Sequence record: MW741821.1
Direction: 5' to 3' (one strand)
Source of the DNA: Escherichia phage vB_EcoP_DE5
DNA length: 64,000 nt
Shown: piece after piece, positions 374 through 57,200 of the stretch
Layout of the letters: the number at the start of each line of letters is the position of its first letter
Position numbering within the stretch: the first letter of the stretch is position 1
The notes under the pieces: model-generated
Told to the model about the DNA's origin: nothing
The model's database searches: none
What the model saw: only the letters and a program-made list of their open reading frames with translations
Position numbers and translations under genes: made by a program

Positions 374-2218
374 TTAGTGTGTATGCATCCAGTTAAGTCC
401 AATCTGACAATCAGATGCCAGAGGACATTCCATGTTCAGATACTCGCCAGCTTTCTTAACACAAAGCTCAGTGTGCTCTTTGAGTTTCTGTACATCATTA
501 CGGTTTACTGAGAATTGACCTTCATCGTGCATATCAATTACCTTAGCACAACGAACCTTATCTTTCTCAATCCACTTGTTAAGGAACATCATAGCATATT
601 TCATAACAACAGCACCAGCACATTGCAGGAGTGTGTTAAGGGCTTTATGAACCATAACCTTACCAGTGGCATCCCGTCTCATTGTAATCTTACGACCATC
701 GACACCAATCAAGTATCCTTGAGCAGCTTTCTCTGTCATACGATCAATGAGGATTGCAATACATGGGTTCTCTGCTAAGAAACGTGCTCGCATCACTGAA
801 CCTTCGTCAGCCCCACCACCTACAATTGAACCGAGCTTAGCATCACCAGCACCATAGTTGAATGCGTAGATAAATGTCTTAGCGTTGTCACGAGTAGGAA
901 GACCAGCAAGTTTCTGGTTGTGGGAGTGGATATCCCCTTCAAGGAGGATGTCACGATACATAATAGCAGAAGCTAAACCACGTTCTGCCAGAGCTTTCTT
1001 AGCTGGATTATTCTCTTCTATTGCTTCAGCAAGCATGTCCCTACACTCTTTAATGAGGTAGTGAGCGAGCATGCGAAGTTCAAGTCCAGAACCATCATAC
1101 CCTAAGAATACTTCTTTACCAGCGGGTATGTAATATTTGTAAGCACCTACAGGTTTGTCTTTCTTCCCCGGCTTACCCTTCTCGTAAATTACGTTAGTAC
1201 CTTTTCGTATATAACAACCATCAGGAACAACGTTAGTAATAATGAAAGGACGAGAATGATCACTGTCTGAGTTATAGTCAGACTCAAACAAACTGCGACA
1301 CTCGTGACCAAACAAACCACGGGAGGGAATATTAACCACGATACGATGTTTGAATCGAAAAGTTGGCGTAGCGCAGCTGTTAGCTTCTGCCGAAAGTTTA
1401 CCATCTTCGCGTTCCTTTGCTATAAGTCCACTGATAAGACCCAGCCTGTGAGCCGCTACAACGCGTCTCTTAAGCAAACTTCCGACACTCCCTAGCTCAC
1501 CCCCTAACCCTTCTTCAAGAGTCTCCTCGAGGTTTGTAGGAGCTGTAGGCCACTTGTTTGATGTGGCTAGTGCTTTCTTAATCTCATCAAACGTTACAGG
1601 ATTACGTCGATTAGGGTTTAATCCCAAACCAAATACGTAAGCCTTCATATAGTTCTTAGTTTTAAACCTAAAATGCTTTTCTAAGAACTTCTTAATATCA
1701 GCGTCAACCATCTTGGCTGTCTGTTTTTGCTTAGCATTACCTCGCATCCAAGCAGTATACCATGCTTGGTATGTTCCATACTTTCTCATATCTTTCTTAA
1801 TTTCGAAAGTATTCCAAGGCTTCTTAGATACGTTAAACTCTGGAGGAAGAAAGCCCTCATCCATAAGAGCTTCTTTAACTCGTGCATCTTTCGATGGGTC
1901 AAAGTCTACGTATTCGACACAGGTGAAAGCTCCACCAATATCTTCTCTCTTCAGCCCAACCCTATCACAATAGGCTTGAGGCCACTTCTGTAAAGCTCCA
2001 GACTTCTTAAACGGCTTCATATAAGTAGAGCCATCTAATCTCATCTTAGGTAAGAGAGGAATCAGTTCTTTGTCAATATTAACAATAATCTCTTTAAGGA
2101 GGTGAACATACCACCGAGCATTTCTTCGGTTGAAACTCACTCCGTGCTTTGCTTGCTTAGAGATTATATCAGCGACAGTCATCTCTGTCAAAAATGGAAG
2201 AGCGTCCGGGTTGCTCAC
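374..2218 (-). CDS. DNA polymerase, family A (polymerase domain only)
   Basis: 614 aa; Pol A motif A-like DGSGLELR, motif B-like RDNAKTFIYAFNYG, motif C HDE; no exonuclease domain in this ORF. Confidence 0.85.
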   Translation of the reverse strand: MSNPDALPFLTEMTVADIISKQAKHGVSFNRRNARWYVHLLKEIIVNIDKELIPLLPKMRLDGSTYMKPFKKSGALQKWPQAYCDRVGLKREDIGGAFTCVEYVDFDPSKDARVKEALMDEGFLPPEFNVSKKPWNTFEIKKDMRKYGTYQAWYTAWMRGNAKQKQTAKMVDADIKKFLEKHFRFKTKNYMKAYVFGLGLNPNRRNPVTFDEIKKALATSNKWPTAPTNLEETLEEGLGGELGSVGSLLKRRVVAAHRLGLISGLIAKEREDGKLSAEANSCATPTFRFKHRIVVNIPSRGLFGHECRSLFESDYNSDSDHSRPFIITNVVPDGCYIRKGTNVIYEKGKPGKKDKPVGAYKYYIPAGKEVFLGYDGSGLELRMLAHYLIKECRDMLAEAIEENNPAKKALAERGLASAIMYRDILLEGDIHSHNQKLAGLPTRDNAKTFIYAFNYGAGDAKLGSIVGGGADEGSVMRARFLAENPCIAILIDRMTEKAAQGYLIGVDGRKITMRRDATGKVMVHKALNTLLQCAGAVVMKYAMMFLNKWIEKDKVRCAKVIDMHDEGQFSVNRNDVQKLKEHTELCVKKAGEYLNMECPLASDCQIGLNWMHTH

Positions 2219-2234
2219 TTTATACTCCTTTAAA

Positions 2235-2657
2235 TTATTGGTAAAGTAAATCTGTAAATGCTTGGTTATCTTCTACTACATTCAGCATGGTTGCTTCATC
2301 ACTATAAGCCCTAACTGTCCCGTTGACAACTGTCCAAGGAGGGGGCGGAGGTGGTGTATGTGTAGCTCTGGCTTCACGAGGTTGTTCTCGTACCAGATGA
2401 GCCACAACCCTCTGATTAGCAACTTCTTCTCTTTCTCTAATAGCTCTCTGAATGTAGGCCAGCTTCATACCCCAAGCTTCTTCAAACTCTTGAGGGTGTT
2501 TATCACTGATAACCACATACTGACGTTCAGGAATACCAGAGCGAATCTCTGATAATAATTCATGGAACAAATCTAGTTCATGTTCAGTGAGATTCATTTC
2601 GATATCATCCCACTTTAGAACTAAGAAACGGTTTTGGTGTCTAGCTGGTAATGGCAT
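2235..2657 (-). CDS. hypothetical protein
   Basis: 140 aa ORF, operon context with polymerase. Confidence 0.45.
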   Translation of the reverse strand: MPLPARHQNRFLVLKWDDIEMNLTEHELDLFHELLSEIRSGIPERQYVVISDKHPQEFEEAWGMKLAYIQRAIREREEVANQRVVAHLVREQPREARATHTPPPPPPWTVVNGTVRAYSDEATMLNVVEDNQAFTDLLYQ

Positions 2658-2820
2658 CCTACTCCACCTCTACTTCAATGTAAGTTCTCTCGCCAACGTC
2701 GTCTTTTAAGACCCATGACTTGGCATCTTCTTCAGACTTAAAAGCTTTCACAACGCTGTATCCCCCTTCCCATTCATCACCGAACCAGCGCTGTCCTACG
2801 TAAATATATTCTTTCATTAC

Positions 2821-3105
2821 TCAACCTTTTGGGAATGGCATCAAAAATTCCATAGCAGATTTAATCTCATTATTGATTCGTGAATCACGATAAGAGATAA
2901 ACTTACCTTTGCTATCACGTAACATCACATGGGTTCTGGCTGTTTTGTGAGGGAGCAATGTGATACTAGTTGGAATAGCATCAACCCCTACAGCGTATTT
3001 GTCAATAGTCTTACTTTCAGCCAACAGATAAGACCAAGTACGCGGTTTCTGCTCCGGGCGGTTAGGGTATGTGTCCCGAATTTGAACCATAGCTAACTTA
3101 TTCAT
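2821..3105 (-). CDS. hypothetical protein (paralog pair with 3107-3361)
   Basis: 94 aa; shares KTARTxVxLR...GKFISY...PFPKG with neighbour. Confidence 0.5.
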   Translation of the reverse strand: MNKLAMVQIRDTYPNRPEQKPRTWSYLLAESKTIDKYAVGVDAIPTSITLLPHKTARTHVMLRDSKGKFISYRDSRINNEIKSAMEFLMPFPKG

Positions 3106-3106
3106 A

Positions 3107-3361
3107 TTAAACTCCTTTAGGGAATGGGATGAGATTTTCTACTGCAACACGGAAAGATTTTTCTACGTCTTTGTTTTTATAAGAAATGAATTTACCATCA
3201 GCACCACGAAGGATTACATTAGTGCGAGCTGTTTTTGGGTTAATCTCAATCATCCGTTCGATGATCTTGTTTGATTTGTTGTGGTGGTTAGTGAAAGTCC
3301 ACTTAACAATCTTGCCATCTCTGGTTACATCAAAAATATTTACGATTTTTACAATAGACAT
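3107..3361 (-). CDS. hypothetical protein (paralog pair with 2821-3105)
   Basis: 84 aa; same conserved motifs as neighbour. Confidence 0.5.
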   Translation of the reverse strand: MSIVKIVNIFDVTRDGKIVKWTFTNHHNKSNKIIERMIEINPKTARTNVILRGADGKFISYKNKDVEKSFRVAVENLIPFPKGV

Positions 3362-3393
3362 ATTTATTACCTAAGAAGTTTTAATTTGGTTTA

Positions 3394-3428
3394 TATAAAA
3401 GAAAAGGCCACCTGATTAGGCAGCCTTT
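3394..3428 (-). terminator. Rho-independent terminator (minus strand)
   Basis: Minus-strand RNA hairpin GGCUGCC-loop-GGUGGCC followed by U-rich tract; same hairpin type as 28770-28803. Confidence 0.55.
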
Positions 3429-3431
3429 GTT

Positions 3432-3725
3432 CTAGAGACGAAGCCAAGTTTGATAGTCAGCTTCAGTGTAATGATTGTTTCGAGAGTTGTTTTTCATTTC
3501 CTTGAGAGTGGCTCTCAGGTCGATGTTATGCTCTCTCCTTGTTCTATTCGGGTCTGTATCTTCTAATAGATGGGAGTGATCACTACAAGAGTAGTGCTTA
3601 TAGTGGTCCCTATATCCTCTACTTGGAGAATACTTGGTCATTAAAGTTGCAACTCTTTTTACACCCTCTGCTTTACAGAATTTACAATAAGTGTGAATTG
3701 TACATCTTTTTGTTTCTGCTGACAC
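3432..3725 (-). CDS. Cys/His-rich small protein (possible HNH-like nuclease)
   Basis: 97 aa with CKFCK and HYKHYSCSDHSH clusters. Confidence 0.35.
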   Translation of the reverse strand: MSAETKRCTIHTYCKFCKAEGVKRVATLMTKYSPSRGYRDHYKHYSCSDHSHLLEDTDPNRTRREHNIDLRATLKEMKNNSRNNHYTEADYQTWLRL

Positions 3726-3735
3726 TATAACCTCT

Positions 3736-4050
3736 TTATGAGCTTAAAGCTCCTTTGCGTGCTCCAGCTGCTTTTCCAGCTCGATCACCACTTTTGCCGC
3801 CGTTTGAACGGTTTGAGCTGACTGATTCAACACGTAAGTTGCTTGACGCATTAGAGCCTCCAGACTTGACAGCTCGTTTGTGTCCAACATCTTTACCTCT
3901 GACAGCAGCTTTTCCATCGCGCTTTTCAACGATGCGACGTGCACGGTGGCGCTGAGCATCTCCGCTCTTGCTCCCAACGCCTGTCTCACCACGGGCAATT
4001 GCGGTACGTCTTTCTTGTGCATAATCTCTCTTTCCTACATGATCTGCCAT
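3736..4050 (-). CDS. hypothetical basic Gly/Arg/Lys-rich protein
   Basis: 104 aa; strong AAGGAG SD 8 nt upstream of ATG; an alternative overlapping frame 3744-4022 cannot be excluded. Confidence 0.35.
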   Translation of the reverse strand: MADHVGKRDYAQERRTAIARGETGVGSKSGDAQRHRARRIVEKRDGKAAVRGKDVGHKRAVKSGGSNASSNLRVESVSSNRSNGGKSGDRAGKAAGARKGALSS

Positions 4051-4106
4051 TTAAAACTCCTTAATATATCAGTGTACACTAAGGAGTATACATTATAAGT
4101 TACTGT

Positions 4107-4844
4107 TTAAGCTTTCTTTTCCATTGCTTTAACAATCGCCTTACAGAAACCAGAACGAACAATATCATCTGATTCACCATCTACAATCTCAGCAAACTCA
4201 TACAGATCATGTTCATCAATAAAGTTAGTAGCCCAAGTAAGACCACTCTCACGACCACGCATATCATGCTGGTTAGTATCGCCCATGCAGAACAGCTGAG
4301 AGGTTTCTCCCAATCGAGTCATGATCGAGAAGGCTTCATCTTTAGTGGTGTTCTGGAACTCATCAACAATAACAATAGCATCATTGAAAGAACGACCACG
4401 GAGATATTCCAGAGGTACGAACTCAATGTTACTGTTACCGAGCTGGCATTCATAGAACCCCTTACCATATCGCTGAGTAATAACATCAATGATAGGCATC
4501 AGGTAAGGTTCAAACTTCTCGCGCATTCCTCCCGGAAGTAACCCAAGGGAGTTGCCCATGCCAACCGAAGGGCGACTCAGAATGATCTTCTGAATCTTAC
4601 CACTTTTCAGTGCATCAATAACCGTGGAAGTGATTACAAAGGTCTTACCACAGCCCGCAGGAGCGTCTGTGAACACAACTTGTTTAGTCTTAATAGCATT
4701 GAGTAGCTCAGACTGAAACTGGTTCTGAGGGACTACAGGCTTTGCTAAAACCACCTCTTCATACTCTCGCTTACCCTTACGAGTAACAAGAGCTTCCCGA
4801 CGAAGGTCTTTCCGTGATTCTTTCCGTGATTGACGACGACTCAT
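4107..4844 (-). CDS. phoH: PhoH-like ATPase
   Basis: 245 aa; Walker A-like APAGCGKTF, Walker B-like IVDEFQN; typical PhoH length. Confidence 0.85.
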   Translation of the reverse strand: MSRRQSRKESRKDLRREALVTRKGKREYEEVVLAKPVVPQNQFQSELLNAIKTKQVVFTDAPAGCGKTFVITSTVIDALKSGKIQKIILSRPSVGMGNSLGLLPGGMREKFEPYLMPIIDVITQRYGKGFYECQLGNSNIEFVPLEYLRGRSFNDAIVIVDEFQNTTKDEAFSIMTRLGETSQLFCMGDTNQHDMRGRESGLTWATNFIDEHDLYEFAEIVDGESDDIVRSGFCKAIVKAMEKKA

Positions 4845-5038
4845 TTACGCTCTCCAATTTCTTCGTAATGACACTCAGTAGTTAAGCAGTCTTTACAGAT
4901 TGCTGTATAAACCCTGACGTTAGTAAATCGTTTGTTCTTCCCTTTGGTTGGAGAGCCTTTGGCAAGCTCTCTGATAACCTTGTTACTTAAATGAAGGTTT
5001 GTTCCTTCACATTTAGAGCACTTCACCACAATGTCCAT
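4841..5038 (-). CDS. small zinc-ribbon protein
   Basis: 65 aa; CSKCEG...CKDC; start/stop overlap with phoH. Confidence 0.45.
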   Translation of the reverse strand: MDIVVKCSKCEGTNLHLSNKVIRELAKGSPTKGKNKRFTNVRVYTAICKDCLTTECHYEEIGERK

Positions 5039-27468: not shown

Positions 27469-27544
27469 TGGTGCGCCCTACAGGACTCGAACCTGTAACC
27501 AATAGCTTAGAAGGCTACTGCTCTATCCATTGAGCTAAGAGCGC
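27469..27544 (-). tRNA. tRNA-Arg (anticodon TCT)
   Basis: Hand-folded: acceptor GCGCTCT/AGGGCGC, D-arm GCTC-AATGGATA-GAGC, anticodon stem GTAGC/GCTAT with loop CTTCTAA, T-arm ACAGG-TTCGAGT-CCTGT, discriminator A, encoded CCA. Confidence 0.85.
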
Positions 27545-33024: not shown

Positions 33025-33933
33025 TTATGCCGCCTGACGTGCCGCCATAATTTCAGCCGCTTTACGCAACACTTCTTCCTCTTCTGCTTTCGCCGCTTGT
33101 TCGGTACGGGTAGCAACCGTTGAAGAGATACGACCGCGCAGACTTTCTAACTTCTCCTGCATAGCTGCAACAGTCTTTTCCATTTCATCAGCGTATGAAT
33201 CGAGTGATTCTAATTCCTTGCTTGATGCGTTCATCAGATAATCATCCGAGATCGCTACCGTTGAGGCCGTGACTTTCTTGATGAGTGAATCAAAGGACTT
33301 TTTAACCTTCCCAACTTCTTCACTCAGGGCGATAGTGTTATCGCTAGTTGCGCCGTTGCGCTCATCAGCCAGTAATTTGGCTTCAATACGGATTGCATTC
33401 AAGCGTTCAACTAAAGCGTAAATATCCTGATTAAAATCTTCCTTGTTTTTCGCCGGAATTTGCAGGTGTGCCGCCACGTTGTCATTACAACCCTTGTAAA
33501 AGTTAGGGTTATCAACTTCAATTTCACGGCCTAAAGCAAAGTTTTCGAAAGCGTTTGACCAGCGAGCGCGGTTTTGTTCCATTTTGGCCTTAATTTGTGC
33601 TTCTTTCGCGTCTTCTTTAGCTTTCGCCTCACCTTCCAGATTAATCCACTTTTTACGACCATTTGCCGCATCGGTGTTAAACTTGATAGGAGTTAAGAAA
33701 GTAATTGCAGTGGCAATCACATCCATATCACGAAAACGTTCAGTTAACAAGAAGTCAACCGCCGTCTGCAATACGTCCAGCTTTTTACCGTTACTGCGGA
33801 AGTGCTGCAAGTGCCCTAACAGGAAGTTAGAAACATCTTGTTTGATCGCCGCGTTATTGCTACGAATGTTGTTAGCCAGTGCGTTAAAACCAGATTCTTT
33901 TACCAGATTAAAGATTTTAGCCATGATATTCAC
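33025..33933 (-). CDS. hypothetical protein (first gene of the minus-strand arm)
   Basis: 302 aa ORF adjacent to the central ORF-free region. Confidence 0.55.
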   Translation of the reverse strand: MNIMAKIFNLVKESGFNALANNIRSNNAAIKQDVSNFLLGHLQHFRSNGKKLDVLQTAVDFLLTERFRDMDVIATAITFLTPIKFNTDAANGRKKWINLEGEAKAKEDAKEAQIKAKMEQNRARWSNAFENFALGREIEVDNPNFYKGCNDNVAAHLQIPAKNKEDFNQDIYALVERLNAIRIEAKLLADERNGATSDNTIALSEEVGKVKKSFDSLIKKVTASTVAISDDYLMNASSKELESLDSYADEMEKTVAAMQEKLESLRGRISSTVATRTEQAAKAEEEEVLRKAAEIMAARQAA

Positions 33934-34747
33934 CTTTCAATTGTAAGGGCGCTATTGCCCCGCTCTCTATGAGCTTGTTTAAGTCACTATTAACTTAACT
34001 ATAACCGCTAACTATTCAGTAGTTATAGGTAAGTGGGGCGGTCTTATCAGGAGTTAACCTTGCCGCCCCCTTATCCGTGATGTTTCATCTGGTATCTTTA
34101 ATTAGTCGCTATAAACGAAGCCGACCTGATAGCGATGATCAATCATCACAATAAGGCAGTGCGTCCGACTCTAATTAGTTACGTTATTGTAACCGTCGGC
34201 AATATCGTTTACTTTGCTTTCGCTCTCGCCTATCCTTTTATATCAACTCTCAATCGCTAGTCATCGCCCACTACGGGATACTATTGCGAAAGAGTCATTG
34301 ACCGTCTAATGTTCCGACGTTTTATATCTTTCGGCAAGTTTACTACATAAACCGACTATGTACTTTCATCATAAGATGAATCTCAAGCCGTTCACATCGT
34401 AAACGTTCACACTAAACCTTATTGTTAAATAGCAATTTGCCACTTTTTAACCACTCCCCGCCGCTCTCAATTGAGCGTTAATTCGTCGGGATTGCCTACC
34501 CTGATTAACTTCTTTCACCGTAGCACCATGTTAGCGATGACCGCCGCTACCCTTAACCGTGGGCGATTAGCTTAAGCCTTTGCGTGTACTCGATGAATCT
34601 GTTTATCAGTGGTGACGTTTCCAGTAAGGGAATGTAAAACTGTTTACCCTGATAATTTAGGGAGTTTTACGCCGTTTTATCTGGTATGTTATCCGATGGT
34701 TATTATCATCTAACATATTCAACCGATATAGGAGAATGTTTAAATTA

Positions 34748-35372
34748 TTAAAGAGCGGTAAATCTATCAGTGTGCTTTCTCACACTATGCAACTGTTAGC
34801 CGTTGTTACGCTTTTCACTGAAGCGATGATTTGCTTAGTGAGTGCTCATTATGAATCATGTTGTTTTCGCTGTCAACCGCTTTTTAATCTTTTTTCGTCG
34901 TTCCCGCTATTGGGAGGATATATCAATCAGCTTTATTTGATTGAAGATTAAGCGGTGAGGCTTAACTTATGACTCATATTGTTAAAGAGCGTTTAGCCTT
35001 TTAAAGTGTCTGCTAATCACTGTCACATTGAAGGCTTACTGATTCATTAACAGGCCGCCTACACCTGAACTAATCGCTGCACTATGTGCCACCTTTCCCG
35101 CGATACGTTGATTTGGGAACTAGTTAGCGATGTTTTGCTAACTTGTGGTTAGTATGGACTACTTTAACCACGTTTGCAACTCTTTTTATCATCTTCTTTT
35201 AATTCCTTTCCCTTATCTCGCGTGAATCTATGCGAAAGGGCAAGATGATAAGTTTTTAAAGAGCGGGATTTTTTAAGTCATCGCTGACTATGCTCACTAT
35301 ATATCAGGCTTTTTCTGGTGTCAATACTCTTTTTAAGTATTTTCACTTTCTAGCCTGATTTTTAAAGAGCGG
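34748..35372. repeat. four dispersed copies of TTAAAGAGCG(G) within an ORF-free region
   Basis: Copies at 34748-34758, 34982-34991, 35246-35256, 35362-35372; no ORF of 60 aa or more between 33950 and 35700 except one short frame. Confidence 0.55.
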
Positions 35373-35603
35373 GGCAAGTTTCCTTGCCTTGTATGTTTTT
35401 CATCGTACCCGATGAATTGAAGTATACGCCAACCAATGTGTAATGCAATAGGGTAAAGCAAATTATTTTAAACTTTTTCATAGTGGGATAGGTAAAAGAA
35501 CGCGCACGCGTGATACATCATAGAAAATAGCTTGTAAAGCATTATTTAACGGCCTGTAACGCATCACAACGAGCTAAAGGAGGGTAAGGAATACAATCAC
35601 CTT

Positions 35604-35632
35604 AGAAATGAGAAAAGCCTCACTAGGAGGCT
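35604..35632 (-). terminator. Rho-independent terminator (minus strand)
   Basis: Hairpin AGCCUC-CUAGUG-AGGCU followed by UUUCUCAUUUCU. Confidence 0.5.
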
Positions 35633-35709
35633 TACAGGAAGGATTTAAAGCAACAGATACAGTAGGACCATAGGCATGACTACGGCACAATATAGGAGAA
35701 AGATTAAGC

Positions 35710-36087
35710 CTATGGATTTACACATTGACCTAAACCGGACTCAATTTCATTCATGGACTCATCAAAGAGCGTCAACGATGAGCGCATCAAGTGATCTATC
35801 GTGATTTGTTTACCGGTAGTTTCATTTACCAGCAGAATAGCTTTGTTATCTGATTGCACATGATCAAAATCATTTACATGCAAAATAATAACTTTAGGTG
35901 ACTGTTTACCAGTTTCATAGTTTTCTATCAAATAGGTGCACTGTAAACTGTCAACCGTAGCAGGGGAGAACATTGCAGCCTTAACACTACCCATAGACGA
36001 TAGGAGAACGCCCAGCAGGAGAACGACAAGGAAGAAGCCCACGAATACTTTTACTACAAATTTGATAATACCCATGATAATAATCAC
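35710..36087 (-). CDS. membrane protein
   Basis: 125 aa; N-terminal transmembrane segment. Confidence 0.5.
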   Translation of the reverse strand: MIIIMGIIKFVVKVFVGFFLVVLLLGVLLSSMGSVKAAMFSPATVDSLQCTYLIENYETGKQSPKVIILHVNDFDHVQSDNKAILLVNETTGKQITIDHLMRSSLTLFDESMNEIESGLGQCVNP

Positions 36088-37207: not shown

Positions 37208-37421
37208 TTCGTTATTCCTTAGATAGATTCAATCAACTGTCATCAACTATATAATAAAGGAAAAGGCTGTCAACCATCTATTTTCTAACTTTCTTGCATC
37301 CTCCTGAAAACTAAAGGAATTTAATTTGCTAAACTTTCCATACTCAGAGAATCAGCTTACTTCTTATTGTTACTTTATAACACTACGGGTAACAGACCAA
37401 CAGACCAGGACAAACGGGGAT

Positions 37422-37812
37422 ACAACAACCGCAGGACAGACCACGGGGAAACATAGCAAGATAGTGCGGTAATAATATACCACTTAAATAATCATCAACT
37501 CATAAAAGAAAAGACCATTCGCTACGCTCATAAAGGCACGCTGAAAAAGAAAAGATTAAAAGAAATACAATCATCCACTTAATTAATACATACATCATTA
37601 TTGCACTCATAATCATTACTATTGAAACTATTTACATTCAAACTATGGGGGATGTGGGCTATTACTTATGGGTATTATTAGCCTCTTATGGTAGTGCCTG
37701 TACAGTGCTAGCCTTTCTCTCACTCTCTAAAGGGGAACTAAATAAACGGGTAGCTAATGAATAGGATGGTATACACGGGGAAAGAATAACGGGGAGTAGG
37801 CACGGGGAAACG
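37422..37812. repeat. five copies of (C)ACGGGGA(AA) in two clusters
   Basis: Copies near 37423, 37443, 37775, 37790, 37803; ACGGGGAAAC exact twice; track ORF 37686-37910 here is probably spurious. Confidence 0.45.
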
Positions 37813-37953
37813 CTGGAACGTGGAAGGAGGTGTAAAGGCATTGCCAATAACCCTTTTTTAAATGAGGACTCCCCCCTTTTAGGAAACGCGCGGGAAGCGC
37901 CTAGCCCCACTCGGTCAAATCAGAATTTTAAACTCTTATATATAAGGTTAAGT

Positions 37954-39912: not shown

Positions 39913-41454
39913 ATGTCATTAGATAAACAAATTTATGAAGCTCTAACTGGTAACAACCTTAGTGTAGACGAAAAGAAAGCACTATTGAATATGTTGAAAG
40001 AGCGTGACCAATGGAGGAAGTATAATAGGATTTTGTCTTTCAAGGCGTATGACTTCCAAAAGAAATTTTATGCAGCAGGATTGAAGCATCGCTTTAGGTT
40101 CTTGTGTGCAGCGAACCGTGTTGGTAAATCTTATAGCGAGGCATACGAGTTTGCTTGTCATGTCACAGGTCGCTACCCAACTTGGTGGACAGGATATAAA
40201 TTTAAAAGACCTATCTTAGCATGGGCAGTTGGTATTACAGGGGATTCCACAAGGAAGGTATTGCAAAAGGAATTGTTTGGTACACCTATCGGAAAGGATA
40301 CAAATTTATTAGGGACAGGTGTCATTCCTCGTGATGCTATCGTCATTGATACGATAGAACGAGATGGTAACAAACTTCAAATCGTACAAATCAAACATCA
40401 AAATGAGAGAGGAGAGTTTGACGGTTTAAGTACATTAGAATTCCGTTCAACCCAACAGGGTGAACACACATTGATGGGTGCAACAGTTGACTACATTTGG
40501 TTAGACGAAGAAGATCCATACGAGTCTATGGCTATATTCGCACAGTGCGTCACACGTACACTCACAACTAAAGGTCTAGTTACAATTACAGCTACACCAG
40601 AGAACGGTTTAACTGAACTGGTAGATAAATTTATGAAAGGTGAAGGAGATGAGAGCACAGGTTCTCTATATTTCCAGAATGCCTCTTGGTGGGATGCTCA
40701 TGCAGACCTAGGTGGACATATCACTGACCAAGATATAAAAGATATGACTGAAGGTATTCCAGCGTGGCAGTTAGAGATGCGTTCGAAAGGTATGCCATTG
40801 TTAGGAAGTGGTTTGATTTATGATGTATCGGATGACACAATTAAATGTGAACCATTCGAAATTCCTGATACGTGGAAACGTGTCTGTGCAATTGATATTG
40901 GTATTGATCACCCAACTGCTGCTGTTTGGACAGCTTACGATGCAAACACGGATACTATCTATGTTTACGACTCATATAAAGAAGGTGGCTTTACTCCAGT
41001 GTATCATGCTCCAGCTATTAATGGTCGTGGTCAGTGGATTCCTGTCATCCTACCGCACGATGCGGACAATATTGAGAAAGGTAGCGGTTCATCTGTTGCT
41101 CAATTCTATAAGAATGCAGGAGTTAACGTACAGAGTGAGACCTTCTACAACAAAATTGGAATGGATGGTAAAAAGAACTTCTTTGTAGAACCGGGAATCA
41201 CAGATATCCGAGAAAGAATGATGAGTGGACGCTTTAAAGTCTTTAACACAGCCGCTAACGCTAAGCTATTCGAAGAGAAAGCTAGATATCACCGTAAGGT
41301 TGGTAAGATTATTAAAGAACATGATGACTTAATGGATGCAATGCGCTATTCAGCGTGCTCTGTTACACATCGTGGTCGCTCTAAGCATGACGTTAGCTAC
41401 GGAAGTGCTTCTTTGTATGAGGCAAACGTAAGCAGATGGAATCAGAGTTACTAA
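39913..41454 (+). CDS. terminase large subunit
   Basis: 513 aa; Walker A-like AANRVGKS, acidic nuclease-type residues downstream, precedes portal. Confidence 0.8.
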   Translation: MSLDKQIYEALTGNNLSVDEKKALLNMLKERDQWRKYNRILSFKAYDFQKKFYAAGLKHRFRFLCAANRVGKSYSEAYEFACHVTGRYPTWWTGYKFKRPILAWAVGITGDSTRKVLQKELFGTPIGKDTNLLGTGVIPRDAIVIDTIERDGNKLQIVQIKHQNERGEFDGLSTLEFRSTQQGEHTLMGATVDYIWLDEEDPYESMAIFAQCVTRTLTTKGLVTITATPENGLTELVDKFMKGEGDESTGSLYFQNASWWDAHADLGGHITDQDIKDMTEGIPAWQLEMRSKGMPLLGSGLIYDVSDDTIKCEPFEIPDTWKRVCAIDIGIDHPTAAVWTAYDANTDTIYVYDSYKEGGFTPVYHAPAINGRGQWIPVILPHDADNIEKGSGSSVAQFYKNAGVNVQSETFYNKIGMDGKKNFFVEPGITDIRERMMSGRFKVFNTAANAKLFEEKARYHRKVGKIIKEHDDLMDAMRYSACSVTHRGRSKHDVSYGSASLYEANVSRWNQSY

Positions 41455-54243: not shown

Positions 54244-57200
54244 ATGGCGCTGTATCCAATAAAGTCGCTAGGTGCTGTAGGCGTTATCGCTGATCAGGCT
54301 CCGACAGACTTAGCTCCTAATGCTTTCACTAATGCTATAAATGCTCGATTTGTTGAGCAGAGAGTCTTTAAGACGGGGGGCAATGCCCCTCTTTCTTATG
54401 TAGATGAAGATAAGGATTTAACCCCTCTGTCTTTCGTTTCTATGCCTTTCGATTATTATAGCGCAGGTAATAGCTTTCTTGTTGTAGGTACAAATAAGAA
54501 GTTATATAAACTGACAGATGAAAGCTTGACTGATATTAGCCGTAAGGTTGCTACAGTCACTAAGAAGGCTTCTGCCTCAATTAAGATTTATCCAGTTGTT
54601 TCTCAGATCGTTCCTAAAGAATCAACTATCTCAATGAACTTCAATCAGACCAAGAATCTAGAGGTTTCTCTTCTCCCTGCTGATGCTAATAATACTGATC
54701 TTATTTGGGAGGTTAGTAACTCAGCCTATGGAAGTATTACGGTAGACCCTAGTGACTCTAAACTTGCTACTCTAACATCTTTTGAGAAAGAGGGTAATCT
54801 TGTAGTAACTATCTCTACTGCCAATGAATCCGTAGTGGCTCAGATTGCTGTTAATATCATAGATGGTGATTCAGGCATCTTCTTGAGTCAAGATACTGTT
54901 ACAATTCGTAAGGGAGGGACTACTACTCTCACGGCTGTTACTGGCAAGACTCCTGTAACTTGGTCCAGCAGTAACGCTTCTATTGTATCCGTAACTCCTA
55001 ACGCCAACTCTTTAACTGCTGTCATTACAGCGAATGGAGAAGGTAATGTAACAATCACTGCTGACAACGGAACTAAGACTGCTTCTTGTGAGATTGTTTC
55101 TATCCCTCAGATTGATAGTATCTCTTTAAGCCAGTCAGATGTTACTGTGAGTAGAGGTTCTCAGTATATCTTAACTGCTACCCTTTCTCCTGCTAACGCC
55201 CCTAATCAAAATATTACTTGGACCTCTTCTAATCCAAATATTGCAACAGTATCAGGGACTAGCACACAAGGGACGATCAACGCTCTACTTGCTGGTTTTA
55301 CTGAGATTACAGCTACCACTGAAGAAGGTAACAGAGTTGCTGTCTGTACTGTACGTGTGGACTTAGCTGGAAGGACAATGAGAACAAGTGCTATGGCATT
55401 TGCCGCTCCTGTATCAGAGTCAGTAGAAACTCAAGAGGAAGAAGTAGTAACTCCTCCTGAAAGTGAAGAGACGGTTTATTTTGCTGAGCCTACATCCGGT
55501 ATTGATACGTCAGGGATGTACGAAGGTAATAACTTCTATGACTACTCTAACGTGAATGACATTGAAGGTTTTGCAAGAGCTTCTTTACTGGCAACCCCTT
55601 TGTCATCTGTAACCTTAGATGTTGTCAGCGCCTCACTTGATGTTGGTGAAGAGATTGTTATCACAGCTACAGCTTCTCCAGAAGGTGATTATTCTTATCA
55701 GTGGTCTGTTGATAAGACTGGTTATGTTTCTACAACTTCAGTCACTGGTAAATCTATCAAACTGGTTGCTCTTCGTAAAGGAGAGATTAACGTAACATGT
55801 ACTGTCAGTCAGATGACTCAGAAGGATTACGATGCTTTTGATGATTATCCTTGGTATCACGCTGTTATCTCTAACTGTGCAGTTGCTACAACTCACTATG
55901 AAACTCCTCAGGTAAAAGAATTCGAATCAGAATACTTTGTAGATCTTCCGGGATGGGGTGAGCAAACAGTTGTCGATAATGACGGGAACCCTTCAGTCAA
56001 GAAGTTTAACTGGAAATGTGAAAGAGTAAGATCTTTTAACAACCGTCTTTTTGCTCTAAACATGAGAGAGGCTAACGCTTCTGGTGTTACCACTAACTAC
56101 CCGCTTCGTCTTCGTTGGTCTAACTTTGCCAATGAGAATAAGGCTCCTACACTGTGGGATGACTTTGCCTATGATCGAGTTGTGTCTTCGGACTTAGCTT
56201 CTAACATCGTAGGGCAGACTCAGGCTCTAGAGAATGGATATGCTGGTTACATTGACCTAGCCGATTCTAATGGTAGCTTGATTGATATCCTACCTCTTAA
56301 AGACTACTTGTTCGTTTATACAGAGTTTGAAACGTATATTGGTTCTCCGACTAATAACACGTACCAACCTCTAATGTTCAAGAAGCTCTTTAACGACTCT
56401 GGTATCCTCGCTCCCGAGTGTGTGGTTGAAGTAGAAGGTAGTCACTTCGTAGTTACTCAGAACGATGTAATCTTACACAATGGTGCAACCAAGAAGTCAA
56501 TTGCATCTAACCGTGTTAAGAACATGCTGATTAATGAGGTGTGTCTGGTTAACCCTCTAGCAACTCGAGTACACTTGCATCAGGATAAGAAAGAAGTTTG
56601 GGTTCTGTACGTAGGTCCGGGAGAACCAAAAGAAAGCTTCGCTTGTACTAAAGCTGCTGTATGGAATTATGAGTTTGATACTTGGTCTTTCCGTACTATC
56701 CCATATGCTCAGTGTATTGGTCTGGTTGATCCTCCTGTTTTAGAAAGAGGTCCAATCTGGTCTGACTTCCAAGAAATCACTTGGGATGACCCATCTATTA
56801 AAGAACTCGTTTGGAGAAAGGATGCAACAAACTTTAGACAGAGGGTTACGATAGTAGGTTCATTCTTGAAGGGATTCTATCAAGTGGATGTAGGTGCTCT
56901 TGATTACTTCTATGACAGGCTAAATGATGTTGTTATAGAGAAGCCTCTGGAAATGAGGTTAGAGAGGACTGGTATAGATTTTGATAATGTGACGAATGAG
57001 TGGAATCAGAAGCATATTAACAGATTCCGACCTCAGACAACTGGCTCGGGTACTTACATATTTGAAGCTGGTGGTAGTCAATTCTCAAATGAATATGGAC
57101 ACCCACACACATCTAAGACATATACGATCGGTGTTGACAGGCACGTCTCGGTGAGACTGAACCATCCATACCTTTTCTATAATGTTATAGATAATGATGT

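Follow-up and report, generated by a model that had tools for sequence, protein, structure and literature searches.

Antitermination of rRNA operons depends on BoxA, the element recognized by NusB/NusE, and in the E. coli rrnB leader the order of elements is a boxB hairpin followed by TGCTCTTTAACAATTTATC. The nut sites of phage lambda (boxA plus boxB, with the N protein) have the reverse order and a weaker boxA, CGCUCUUA. Large structured RNAs are known from phages and prophages (GOLLD, ROOL) and from other bacterial sources (OLE, raiA). Outside of rRNA operons, BoxA elements have been described ahead of CRISPR arrays (Stringer et al. 2020, PMC7665894), and the suhB leader is a further case (Baniulyte et al. 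2017, PMC5725501). We report here a phage locus that shares some features with each of these systems.

The window, a 64,000-nucleotide stretch of DNA from Escherichia phage vB_EcoP_DE5 (MW741821.1), belongs to a Kuravirus (phiEco32-like) coliphage. The gap at 33934-35709 lies between the homologues of phiEco32 genes 124 and 125 and is carried by 97 Gordonclarkvirinae records, most of which have nothing annotated inside it. Some depositors placed small CDSs in the gap, and many records label a small gap-adjoining gene as “terminase”. The preliminary description placed the gap between divergent arms, at a strand-switch point. The gene-124 and gene-125 homologues are, however, both on the minus strand, as are the three genes that follow the right-hand gene (35710-36087), and the gap is thus away from the strand switch, which is found with the terminal repeat about 2 kb to its right. 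The gap is bounded, and interrupted, by the following features:

35615-35633, minus strand: intrinsic-terminator-like hairpin (scan: seven-pair stem, then a T run)
34995-35250, minus strand: variable spacer, with insertions or extra promoter-BoxA modules in relatives
33025-33939, minus strand: Shine-Dalgarno sequence (AAAGGTGA) and gene-124 homologue (299 aa), directly downstream of the RNA described below

The hairpin at 35615-35633 is just downstream of the gene-125 homologue, was also marked as a terminator by the annotators of phage 4E8, and delimits the non-coding unit on its upstream side.

We considered whether the gap might be a packaging (pac/cos) site or the junction of a terminal repeat, as had been suggested. 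A non-coding gap next to a gene named “terminase” would suit either function, but the terminal repeats lie elsewhere: the 193-nt repeat of phiEco32 aligns at 90% identity to 37710-37902, and the direct terminal repeat annotated in phage 4E8 maps to 37857-37902. The 121-aa “terminase” owes its name to PHROG only, with no Pfam support found, while a 513-aa ORF (39913-41454) occupies the slot of the relatives’ 514-aa protein with Terminase_6N/6C domains. We therefore regard a terminus or packaging site within the gap as extremely improbable.

The same region had been described as free of ORFs, and this was borne out: 33934-35709 contains no credible ORF, and none is conserved on either strand. 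No minus-strand ORF of at least 30 aa was found within 33934-35330. Three short candidates were rejected. A 71-aa plus-strand ORF (34736-34951) has lost its start in six of 25 relatives, and truncations or frameshifts disrupt it in most of the others. Minus-strand ORFs of 38 and 39 aa at 35362-35690 have in-frame stops in relatives. A hidden protein-coding gene, whether recoded, frameshifted or composed of very small ORFs, could be argued from the presence of short ORFs and from the small CDSs annotated by some depositors; however, none of the gap ORFs is conserved, and the substitutions are compensatory changes in helix pairs without codon periodicity, making such a gene scarcely credible.

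The 11-mer TTAAAGAGCG had been noted four times in the gap, followed by an optional G. We confirmed four copies, at 34748, 34982, 35256 and 35362; the third had been given as 35246, ten positions too low, and at 34982 the last letter is T instead of G. The 11-mer occurs only on the plus strand, with exactly four copies in the whole 64 kb, all in the gap, and its minus-strand (transcribed) reading is CGCTCTTTAA. All four copies fit exactly the BoxA consensus GYTCTTTAANA (Baniulyte 2017, PMC5725501). The consensus has six matches in the 64-kb window, compared to 0.49 +/- 0.76 expected, and four of them are within 34746-35370, all on the minus strand. The elements and the predicted sigma-70 promoters, in the direction of the predicted transcription, are:

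35370-35360, minus strand: BoxA-1, GCTCTTTAAAA, preceded by a hairpin (35360-35392 together)
35296-35324, minus strand: upstream sigma-70 promoter, TTGACA-17-TATAGT (11 of 12 consensus matches), predicted start about 35289
35254-35264, minus strand: BoxA-2, GCTCTTTAAAA, at about +24 to +34 of the upstream-promoter transcript
34980-34990, minus strand: BoxA-3, with flanks CGCTCTTTAACAA, kept in the alignment
34848-34876, minus strand: core sigma-70 promoter, TTGACA-17-CATAAT (11 of 12 consensus matches), predicted start about 34841
34746-34756, minus strand: BoxA-4, GCTCTTTAATA, at about +85 of the core transcript

The hairpin before BoxA-1 (GGCAAG-GAAA-CTTGCC) has a GNRA loop and a boxB-like position, so that hairpin and BoxA follow each other in the same order as in the rrnB leader. 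A small GUCA-GCGA-UGAC hairpin precedes BoxA-2, and a covarying hairpin (34784-34768) precedes BoxA-4, where the word AGATTTACCGCTCTTTAA is invariant across 25 phages. BoxA-3 with its flanks reads exactly as the rrn BoxA core GCTCTTTAACAA. Of the 17 copies that we folded, 12 have a hairpin of -4 to -11 kcal/mol about 2-15 nt upstream of BoxA; the hairpin is weak or distant in the other five, including the perfect rrn-type BoxA-3. A search for the repeats in related phages, which the preliminary description had called for, yielded 103 BoxA copies in 25 close phages, and one copy in SU7 has 18 nt in common with the rrnB leader. No match to rrn boxC (TGTGTGGG; UGUGUGGG), with up to one mismatch, was found anywhere in 33934-35709. 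By their sequence, the four repeats are BoxA antitermination elements for which NusB/NusE binding and Rho resistance are predicted. Antitermination is the likelier outcome of the gap BoxA elements but not the only option, since BoxA has a repressive role at suhB (PMC5725501).

The placement of the promoters agrees with this assignment. Two sigma-70 promoters are predicted in the gap of DE5 and two to four in relatives. The upstream promoter has an equivalent in 24 of 25 close relatives (it was not called in EP335) and varies in copy number, while the -10 element of the core promoter together with GAGC is invariant in 25 phages. Both predicted gap promoters in DE5 are followed by BoxA, an arrangement also present in 32 relatives, and the order promoter, then BoxA is retained in eight distant phages. 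Among the 59 gap promoters called in the 25 close phages, 49 have a BoxA 47-123 nt (mostly 59-61) past the first base of the -35 hexamer. All BoxA copies have the same orientation as the predicted minus-strand promoters, although some are upstream, not downstream, of a promoter. The promoter at 37273, which has a translated gene at once downstream, is without BoxA. Four sigma-70 promoters, located where the early cluster begins, serve the early genes of phiEco32 (Lavysh 2022, PMC8948821), and we infer that the gap promoters are among these four.

These arrangements bear on two other interpretations. The BoxA array might serve, on abundant early transcripts, mainly as a decoy that titrates NusB/NusE (and SuhB) off the host rRNA operons, aiding the shut-off of ribosome synthesis. 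Each phage has four or more consensus BoxA copies behind near-consensus promoters, and the copies located upstream of promoters would place several BoxA on readthrough transcripts. However, simple antitermination in cis would call for one BoxA per promoter, and a decoy leaves the conserved 0.9 kb fold described below unexplained; we consider this role unlikely.

The second interpretation, for which an origin had been among the options first offered for this ORF desert with iterated motifs, is that the gap is or contains a replication origin. The repeats would then be protein-binding iterons, and transcripts from the strong promoters would prime or activate DNA synthesis. Transcripts prime or activate replication at the primary origin of T7 and, through RNA II, at that of ColE1. 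Phage origins often lie in such a setting, non-coding and with strong tandem promoters and direct repeats scattered through it, and a primer RNA that folds, as RNA II does, would covary too. Against this, the repeats are not iterons but exact BoxA elements in sense orientation after sigma-70 promoters, and no DnaA box (TTATNCACA) was found in the gap. The G+C content of the gap (0.39-0.41) is the same as in the remaining genome, arguing that there is no AT-rich unwinding block, and the minimum of the cumulative GC skew is outside the gap, at about 37-38 kb. An origin at this site thus appears improbable.

Downstream of the core promoter, folding energy and covariation support a conserved structured RNA of about 0.9 kb, with the following parts:

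33946-34841, minus strand: conserved structured RNA, whole
34841-34768, minus strand: 5' hairpins
34744-34446, minus strand: domain A
34445-34427, minus strand: single hairpin between the domains
34425-34148, minus strand: domain B
34147-33946, minus strand: 3' series of hairpins
34070-34147, minus strand: segment with the second repeat ATACCAGATGAAAC (plus strand 34083-34095), which takes part in a long covarying hairpin in the divergent alignment
34035-34069, minus strand: GGGGCGG-loop-CCGCCCC hairpin, a single RNA helix in which five of seven pairs covary, with zero broken cells

The minimum free energy of the RNA has a z-score of -8.3. The consensus fold has about 44 helices and 243 predicted pairs, of which 81 show compensatory double changes in the close set, compared to 36.6 +/- 3.3 in shuffles and 9-15 when the partners were slid. 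Cells are paired in 99.0% of cases in the RNA fold as opposed to 34-46% with slid partners. In the divergent alignment, 74 of 106 pairs covary, with a covariation score of 0.559 versus 0.21 for shuffled and 0.08-0.11 for slid controls. The strand is indicated by 681 G.U cells versus 20 A.C cells and by a consensus energy of -248 kcal/mol on the minus strand versus -165 kcal/mol on the plus strand. These results show that 34841-33946 encodes a conserved multi-domain folded RNA on the minus strand, with its transcription predicted from the promoters. A large non-coding RNA was one of the four options offered in the preliminary description and is the only one supported, strongly so, by this minus-strand covariation.

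Two further motifs that had been pointed out in the gap are parts of the folded RNA. The GGGGCGG inverted repeat is present as a hairpin, about 8 nt from the 34043-34077 first reported, and its loop GGCAAGGTTAAYTYCTGATAAG is invariant in 25 close relatives. The TTT(C/T) repeat TTTYATCTGGTAT does occur twice, at 34083 and 34675 and not at 34084 and 34677. In the divergent alignment, ATACCAGATGAAAC pairs with GATCATCGCTAT, and 19 of the 27 pairs changed on both sides. We rejected two other pairings. The local hairpin GAUGAUUGAUCAUC from the close set has zero covariation, and the divergent set favours a longer pairing with the ATACCAGAUGAAAC segment. BoxA-4 (CCGCUCUUUA) could also form 10 bp with UAGAGAGCGG close to the 3' end, but an A/C polymorphism breaks this pairing in seven phages and is instead compatible with the loop of a local hairpin. 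No convincing signal of pseudoknots emerged from pairwise covariation among unpaired columns.

The RNA matches no described RNA family. There was no match in the gap at the Rfam 15 gathering threshold, with GOLLD, ROOL, OLE, group I/II introns, RNase P, tmRNA and 6S RNA among the families covered, and at E <= 10 the 4227 models gave only seven chance-level hits (12-21 bits versus thresholds of 34-167). Searches of E. coli genomes, plasmids and GTDB genomes returned no similarity to the RNA, indicating that it is neither host-derived nor a prophage element. Distant copies of the RNA were located with nhmmer. A homologous RNA was not found by nhmmer in phage 7-11, formerly grouped with phiEco32, and thirteen IMG/VR contigs that matched a conserved 16-mer were chance matches.

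The RNA is directly upstream of the gene-124 homologue in every carrier phage examined, including relatives at 51-65% nucleotide identity, and gp124 and the RNA co-occur in the same 97 records and in eight metagenomic relatives (gp124 at 47-70% identity). The gp124 protein had no informative family or fold match. Purely from the linkage, gp124 and the RNA may be partners. No clear terminator or processing site was found before gene 124 to define the 3' end of the RNA, so that the RNA could be no more than a long 5' leader acting in cis on the gene-124 operon. It would then lack an independent function and would control the translation or stability of the gp124 mRNA, for instance by masking the Shine-Dalgarno sequence. 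In addition to its constant position immediately 5' of gene 124, such a leader is favoured by the closing helix that RNAalifold predicts between AUUUACC, next to BoxA-4, and GGUGAAU at the ribosome-binding site. This helix, however, has zero covariation and is broken in two of 25 sequences, and 0.9 kb with so many helices is far in excess of the need of any known translational leader. Moreover, the RNA is 86-90% identical in distant phages where gene 124 is 76-79% identical. A leader function alone is possible but doubtful. In distant phages the RNA is better kept than the adjacent protein gene, and our best guess is that it is more than a mere spacer, acting as a functional RNA, or as an RNA-protein particle possibly with gp124, in early host takeover.

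Taken together, the gap probably is an rRNA-operon-like unit that produces a large new structured RNA early in infection. On infection, the two near-consensus early promoters would fire, and a BoxA element (GCUCUUUAAnA) together with a small hairpin would soon be present on each transcript. If it acts as in E. coli rrn operons and CRISPR leaders, this element would recruit NusB/NusE(S10), which with NusA, NusG and SuhB would make RNA polymerase resistant to Rho, a resistance that would be needed since 0.9 kb of untranslated RNA follows. This untranslated part would fold into the conserved multi-domain RNA, and transcription would continue into gene 124 and the remaining leftward early genes. 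Nus factors would then bind the gap BoxA elements, and Rho would be the threat.

The unit resembles the E. coli rRNA operon leader in its tandem strong sigma-70 promoters (P1/P2 in rrn), in the hairpin with a BoxA of the GCUCUUUAACAA type a few nucleotides later, and in its long, untranslated and highly structured RNA. It differs in that boxC was not found in the gap, the RNA is something other than rRNA, without similarity to E. coli DNA, the unit runs into protein-coding early genes, and Nus-factor binding is a prediction. As in lambda, BoxA is on an early transcript soon after the early promoter, with use of host NusB/NusE presumed. Unlike lambda, where BoxA precedes boxB, the phage gap has the rrn-like order and full-consensus BoxA elements serving a long non-coding RNA, and no N-like protein was identified among the genes neighbouring the gap. 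The BoxA elements of CRISPR leaders and suhB share the consensus GYTCTTTAANA and, as predicted here, the control of Rho action on untranslated RNA; in contrast, the present BoxA elements are in a virulent phage, in several copies, each with its own promoter, ahead of a folded 0.9 kb RNA. The resemblance to GOLLD, ROOL, OLE and raiA is of kind only (a size of hundreds of nucleotides, many covarying helices, phage association). The present RNA matches none of them, occurs in a virulent coliphage clade behind predicted early promoters, and is fixed beside one protein gene.

Large structured RNAs of uncharacterised role are rare, and few occur in genetically tractable systems. The carriers here are virulent E. 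coli phages, several of which (Bas86-Bas93) grow on a K-12 strain with restored O-antigen, making deletion, compensatory mutation, RNA-seq and cryo-EM feasible. The findings would add a virulent podovirus to the known settings of BoxA/Nus-factor antitermination (rRNA operons, lambdoid phages, CRISPR leaders, suhB), and provide a concrete account of how 0.9 kb of untranslated RNA would be transcribed without Rho-dependent loss of the downstream early genes. They also account for an “empty” region of 1.6-3 kb that is blank or mis-annotated in about 100 deposited genomes. More tentatively, and with somewhat less than even confidence, we suggest that Gordonclarkvirinae and their uncultured relatives carry a large ornate RNA of a class not described before, produced within the first minutes after infection through the antitermination and folding machinery of host rRNA (rrn-type BoxA cassettes) and acting, alone or with gp124, as an RNA machine or scaffold in host takeover or defence evasion. 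Gordonclarkvirinae showed marked resistance to the defence systems tested in the BASEL study (PMC11990801), and this resistance of the subfamily might be related to a role of the RNA in defence evasion.

A sequence search with 33900-35750 matched 97 records, and this segment is 88-97% identical to Kuravirus phages of Escherichia and Shigella (phiEco32, SGF2, ES17, Bas90 and others). In phiEco32, the counterpart of the ORF-free gap (33934-35709) spans 1.94 kb from gene 124 (71887-72786) to gene 125 (74731-75096), both on the minus strand. The genes flanking the gap and the three sites that matched 11 of 12 promoter consensus positions in a consensus scan are listed below.

Flanking genes and predicted promoters
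33025-33924, minus strand: gp124 homologue, left flank of the gap
35710-36087, minus strand: gp125 homologue, right flank of the gap
34876-34848, minus strand: core promoter, TTGACA-17-CATAAT
35324-35296, minus strand: promoter, TTGACA-17-TATAGT
37273-37246, minus strand: promoter directly upstream of the gp128 homologue

The preliminary description placed the gap at the switch between divergent arms, but both flanking genes and the next three ORFs rightward of 35710-36087 are on the minus strand. At 37710-37902 the window aligned, with 90% identity, to the phiEco32 direct terminal repeat of 193 nt. The strand switch and the genome's physical ends thus lie some 2 kb rightward of the gap; since the repeat sits inside the window, the latter is a permuted assembly running through those ends. 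The same alignment, lying outside the gap, excludes the earlier proposal of a terminal-repeat junction or packaging site. A motif reported in SU10, CCCTTTTTTA, is part of the aligned repeat. Many GenBank entries call the 121-aa protein at 35710-36087 (minus strand) ‘terminase’, a name it owes solely to PHROG 13168; Pfam gave no match for it. The label looks like a propagated mis-annotation, and the place held in relatives by the gene for a 514-aa Terminase_6N/6C protein is occupied by a 513-aa ORF at 39913-41454. A tRNA-Arg(TCT) gene lies at 27469-27544 (minus strand), as in phiEco32.

The ORF scan and the comparison with relatives found no conserved coding in the gap, in agreement with the preliminary description. 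There was no minus-strand ORF of at least 30 aa between 33934 and 35330, and a hidden gene was excluded because the candidates, a 71-aa plus-strand ORF and two minus-strand ORFs of ~39 aa, are broken in relatives.

Promoter-like sites were fewer overall than expected by chance, and the three best sites were all on the minus strand. The -10 element of the core promoter and the GAGC after it are invariant in 25 phages. Lavysh et al. 2022 (PMC8948821) state that four sigma-70 promoters, located where the early cluster begins, serve the phiEco32 early genes; the predicted promoters here are probably among them. Transcription from the gap might prime replication, but an origin here is quite unlikely, given that the gap contains no DnaA boxes, AT-rich block or skew minimum.

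The repeat TTAAAGAGCG occurs exactly four times in the window (34748, 34982, 35256 and 35362), slightly adjusting the positions first reported. On the transcribed minus strand it reads (C)CGCTCTTTAA, and each of the four agrees with the BoxA consensus of gamma-proteobacteria, GYTCTTTAANA (Baniulyte et al. 2017, PMC5725501). This consensus matches the window at six places (0.49 ± 0.76 expected), every one on the minus strand; four of them fall within 34746-35370. The other two exact matches (GTTCTTTAATA; 41310-41320 and 56796-56806, minus strand) are antisense to plus-strand late genes, and may either be accidental or have a role on antisense transcripts. The E. coli rrnB leader served for comparison: P2 is followed there first by a boxB hairpin, next by TGCTCTTTAACAATTTATC. 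The gap copy at 34992-34980 reads CGCTCTTTAACAA, and 18 consecutive bases of one SU7 copy recur in the rrnB leader. A small hairpin lies at most ~15 nt upstream of BoxA in 12 of 17 copies folded. The hairpin-then-BoxA order is common to the rrn leader and the gap, whereas a search for boxC gave no match in the gap.

Searching related phages for the repeats, as previously proposed, recovered 103 BoxA copies in 25 close phages, with two to four promoter-BoxA modules per phage. BoxA follows 49 of the 59 gap sigma-70 promoters called, starting 47-123 nt (mostly 59-61) past the first base of the -35 hexamer, usually at ~+24 of the transcript; for the core promoter it is at ~+85. Module number differs between otherwise close phages: Bas90 and ECBP2 have ~186 nt extra inserted at ~35253, NJ01 and Bas93 carry additional modules, and the variable region is 34995-35250 with its homologous stretch in the relatives' loci L001-L025. 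The resemblance of 35253-35371 to 34834-34897 suggests that the modules are cassette duplicates. Rho terminates untranslated RNA only, and BoxA protects such transcripts (PMC7665894). The promoter at 37273 has no BoxA and a translated gene immediately downstream, which fits with BoxA being needed only ahead of untranslated RNA. More speculatively, the BoxA array could be a Nus-factor decoy. A 15-nt inverted match (93%) was noted between 33955-33969 (UAGAGAGCGGGGCAA in the RNA, shortly before the ribosome-binding site of gene 124) and 35363-35377 (BoxA-1 region); covariation does not support their pairing as RNA.

The 1060-nt block 33934-34993 is kept in every relative, and in more distant genera it is better conserved than the adjacent gene 124.

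Identity of the RNA block and gene 124 in distant relatives
SU7: RNA block 88.6%, gene 124 77.1%
Bas86: RNA block 90.4%, gene 124 76.5%
Bas88: RNA block 86.5%, gene 124 76.2%
EK010: RNA block 85.7%, gene 124 79.0%

The minus-strand RNA 34841-33934 folded at -274.6 kcal/mol (z = -8.3 relative to dinucleotide shuffles, which gave -220.9 ± 6.5); for the plus strand, z was -5.3. RNAalifold predicted 243 pairs in 25 phages, 81 of which keep pairing despite changes on both sides, in support of the large non-coding RNA suggested earlier.

Pairing in the 25-phage alignment (observed; shuffled; partners slid)
Cells forming a standard pair: 99.0%; 93.9%; 34-46%
Pairs changed on both sides: 81; 36.6 ± 3.3 (0/500 reach 81); 9-15
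Covariation score: 0.234; 0.129; 0.04-0.065

The excess of G.U over A.C cells in the minus-strand reading (681 vs 20) and the lower consensus energy (-248 kcal/mol vs -165 on the plus strand) settle that the RNA is on the minus strand. The GGGGCGG/CCGCCCC hairpin is real, lies at 34035-34069 and forms one helix of the RNA, with 5 of 7 pairs covarying and a 22-nt loop that does not vary among the 25 close relatives. The TTTYATCTGGTAT copies, at 34083 and 34675, are conserved RNA segments, and in the divergent set one of them supplies the 3’ side of a long covarying hairpin; both features had been reported with small coordinate errors. The RNA is possibly a purely cis-acting leader of gene 124, but no covariation is seen in the helix predicted to mask the Shine-Dalgarno sequence. 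No Rfam 15 family matched the RNA. Kink-turn-like elements are hinted at by conserved UGAUGA/CGAUGA words (34134-34147 and 34259-34270, minus strand) taken with chance-level Rfam matches of 12-21 bits to C/D-box snoRNA models. In LAMP (L021), part of domain B (~34330-34270) is replaced by an unrelated longer sequence (~33 nt extra) with the flanking helices kept, a natural domain swap that could reveal dispensable parts of the RNA.

The RNA (blastn) and gp124 (tblastn) each returned 97 phage records with an identical organism/host breakdown, Escherichia/Shigella Gordonclarkvirinae. Nothing similar to the RNA was found in E. coli genomes, plasmids or GTDB genomes, and phage 7-11 is without it. 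A protein search recovered gp124 homologues (47-70% identity) on uncultured-phage contigs, with 1.4-3 kb of gene-free DNA upstream in 8/8 loci fetched. With nhmmer, the RNA was detected directly upstream of the homologue (E 1e-116 to 1e-20), preceded by promoter-BoxA modules. When 8 close sequences were aligned together with 8 distant ones (51-65% identity), covariation was seen at 74 of the 106 pairs predicted; pairing was kept in 94.6% of cells (76.6% shuffled, 35-42% slid) and the covariation score was 0.559 (0.21 shuffled, 0.08-0.11 slid). Three distant uncultured relatives (L052, L053 and L055; ~1950-5000) lack genes 125-128, and their gap does lie at the strand switch: only 3 kb of gene-free DNA separates the gp124 homologue from the opposite-strand arm, and the large terminase follows ~2 kb further on. 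The gp124 protein is helical, family and fold searches with it gave no informative match, and synteny suggests that it may partner the RNA.

This analysis establishes the sequence features, their order, the RNA fold and the gp124 linkage, and the best-supported reading of the gap is an rRNA-operon-like unit. Tandem early promoters would yield a transcript carrying the hairpin and BoxA, on which a Nus-factor complex is predicted to load. The resulting Rho-resistant RNA polymerase would produce the long untranslated folded RNA, presumably Rho-sensitive otherwise, and carry on into gene 124 and beyond; the transcript ends are likewise predicted. Among the papers searched, none ties phiEco32 or Kuravirus to BoxA or non-coding RNA, and non-coding RNA goes unmentioned in the BASEL description of these phages (PMC11990801). 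Neither this RNA family nor its link to rrn-type BoxA cassettes in a virulent coliphage seems to have been described before; BoxA antitermination and large structured phage RNAs are both known kinds. The presence of the promoter-BoxA-RNA-gp124 unit on contigs of uncultured relatives indicates that it is older than the described subfamily.
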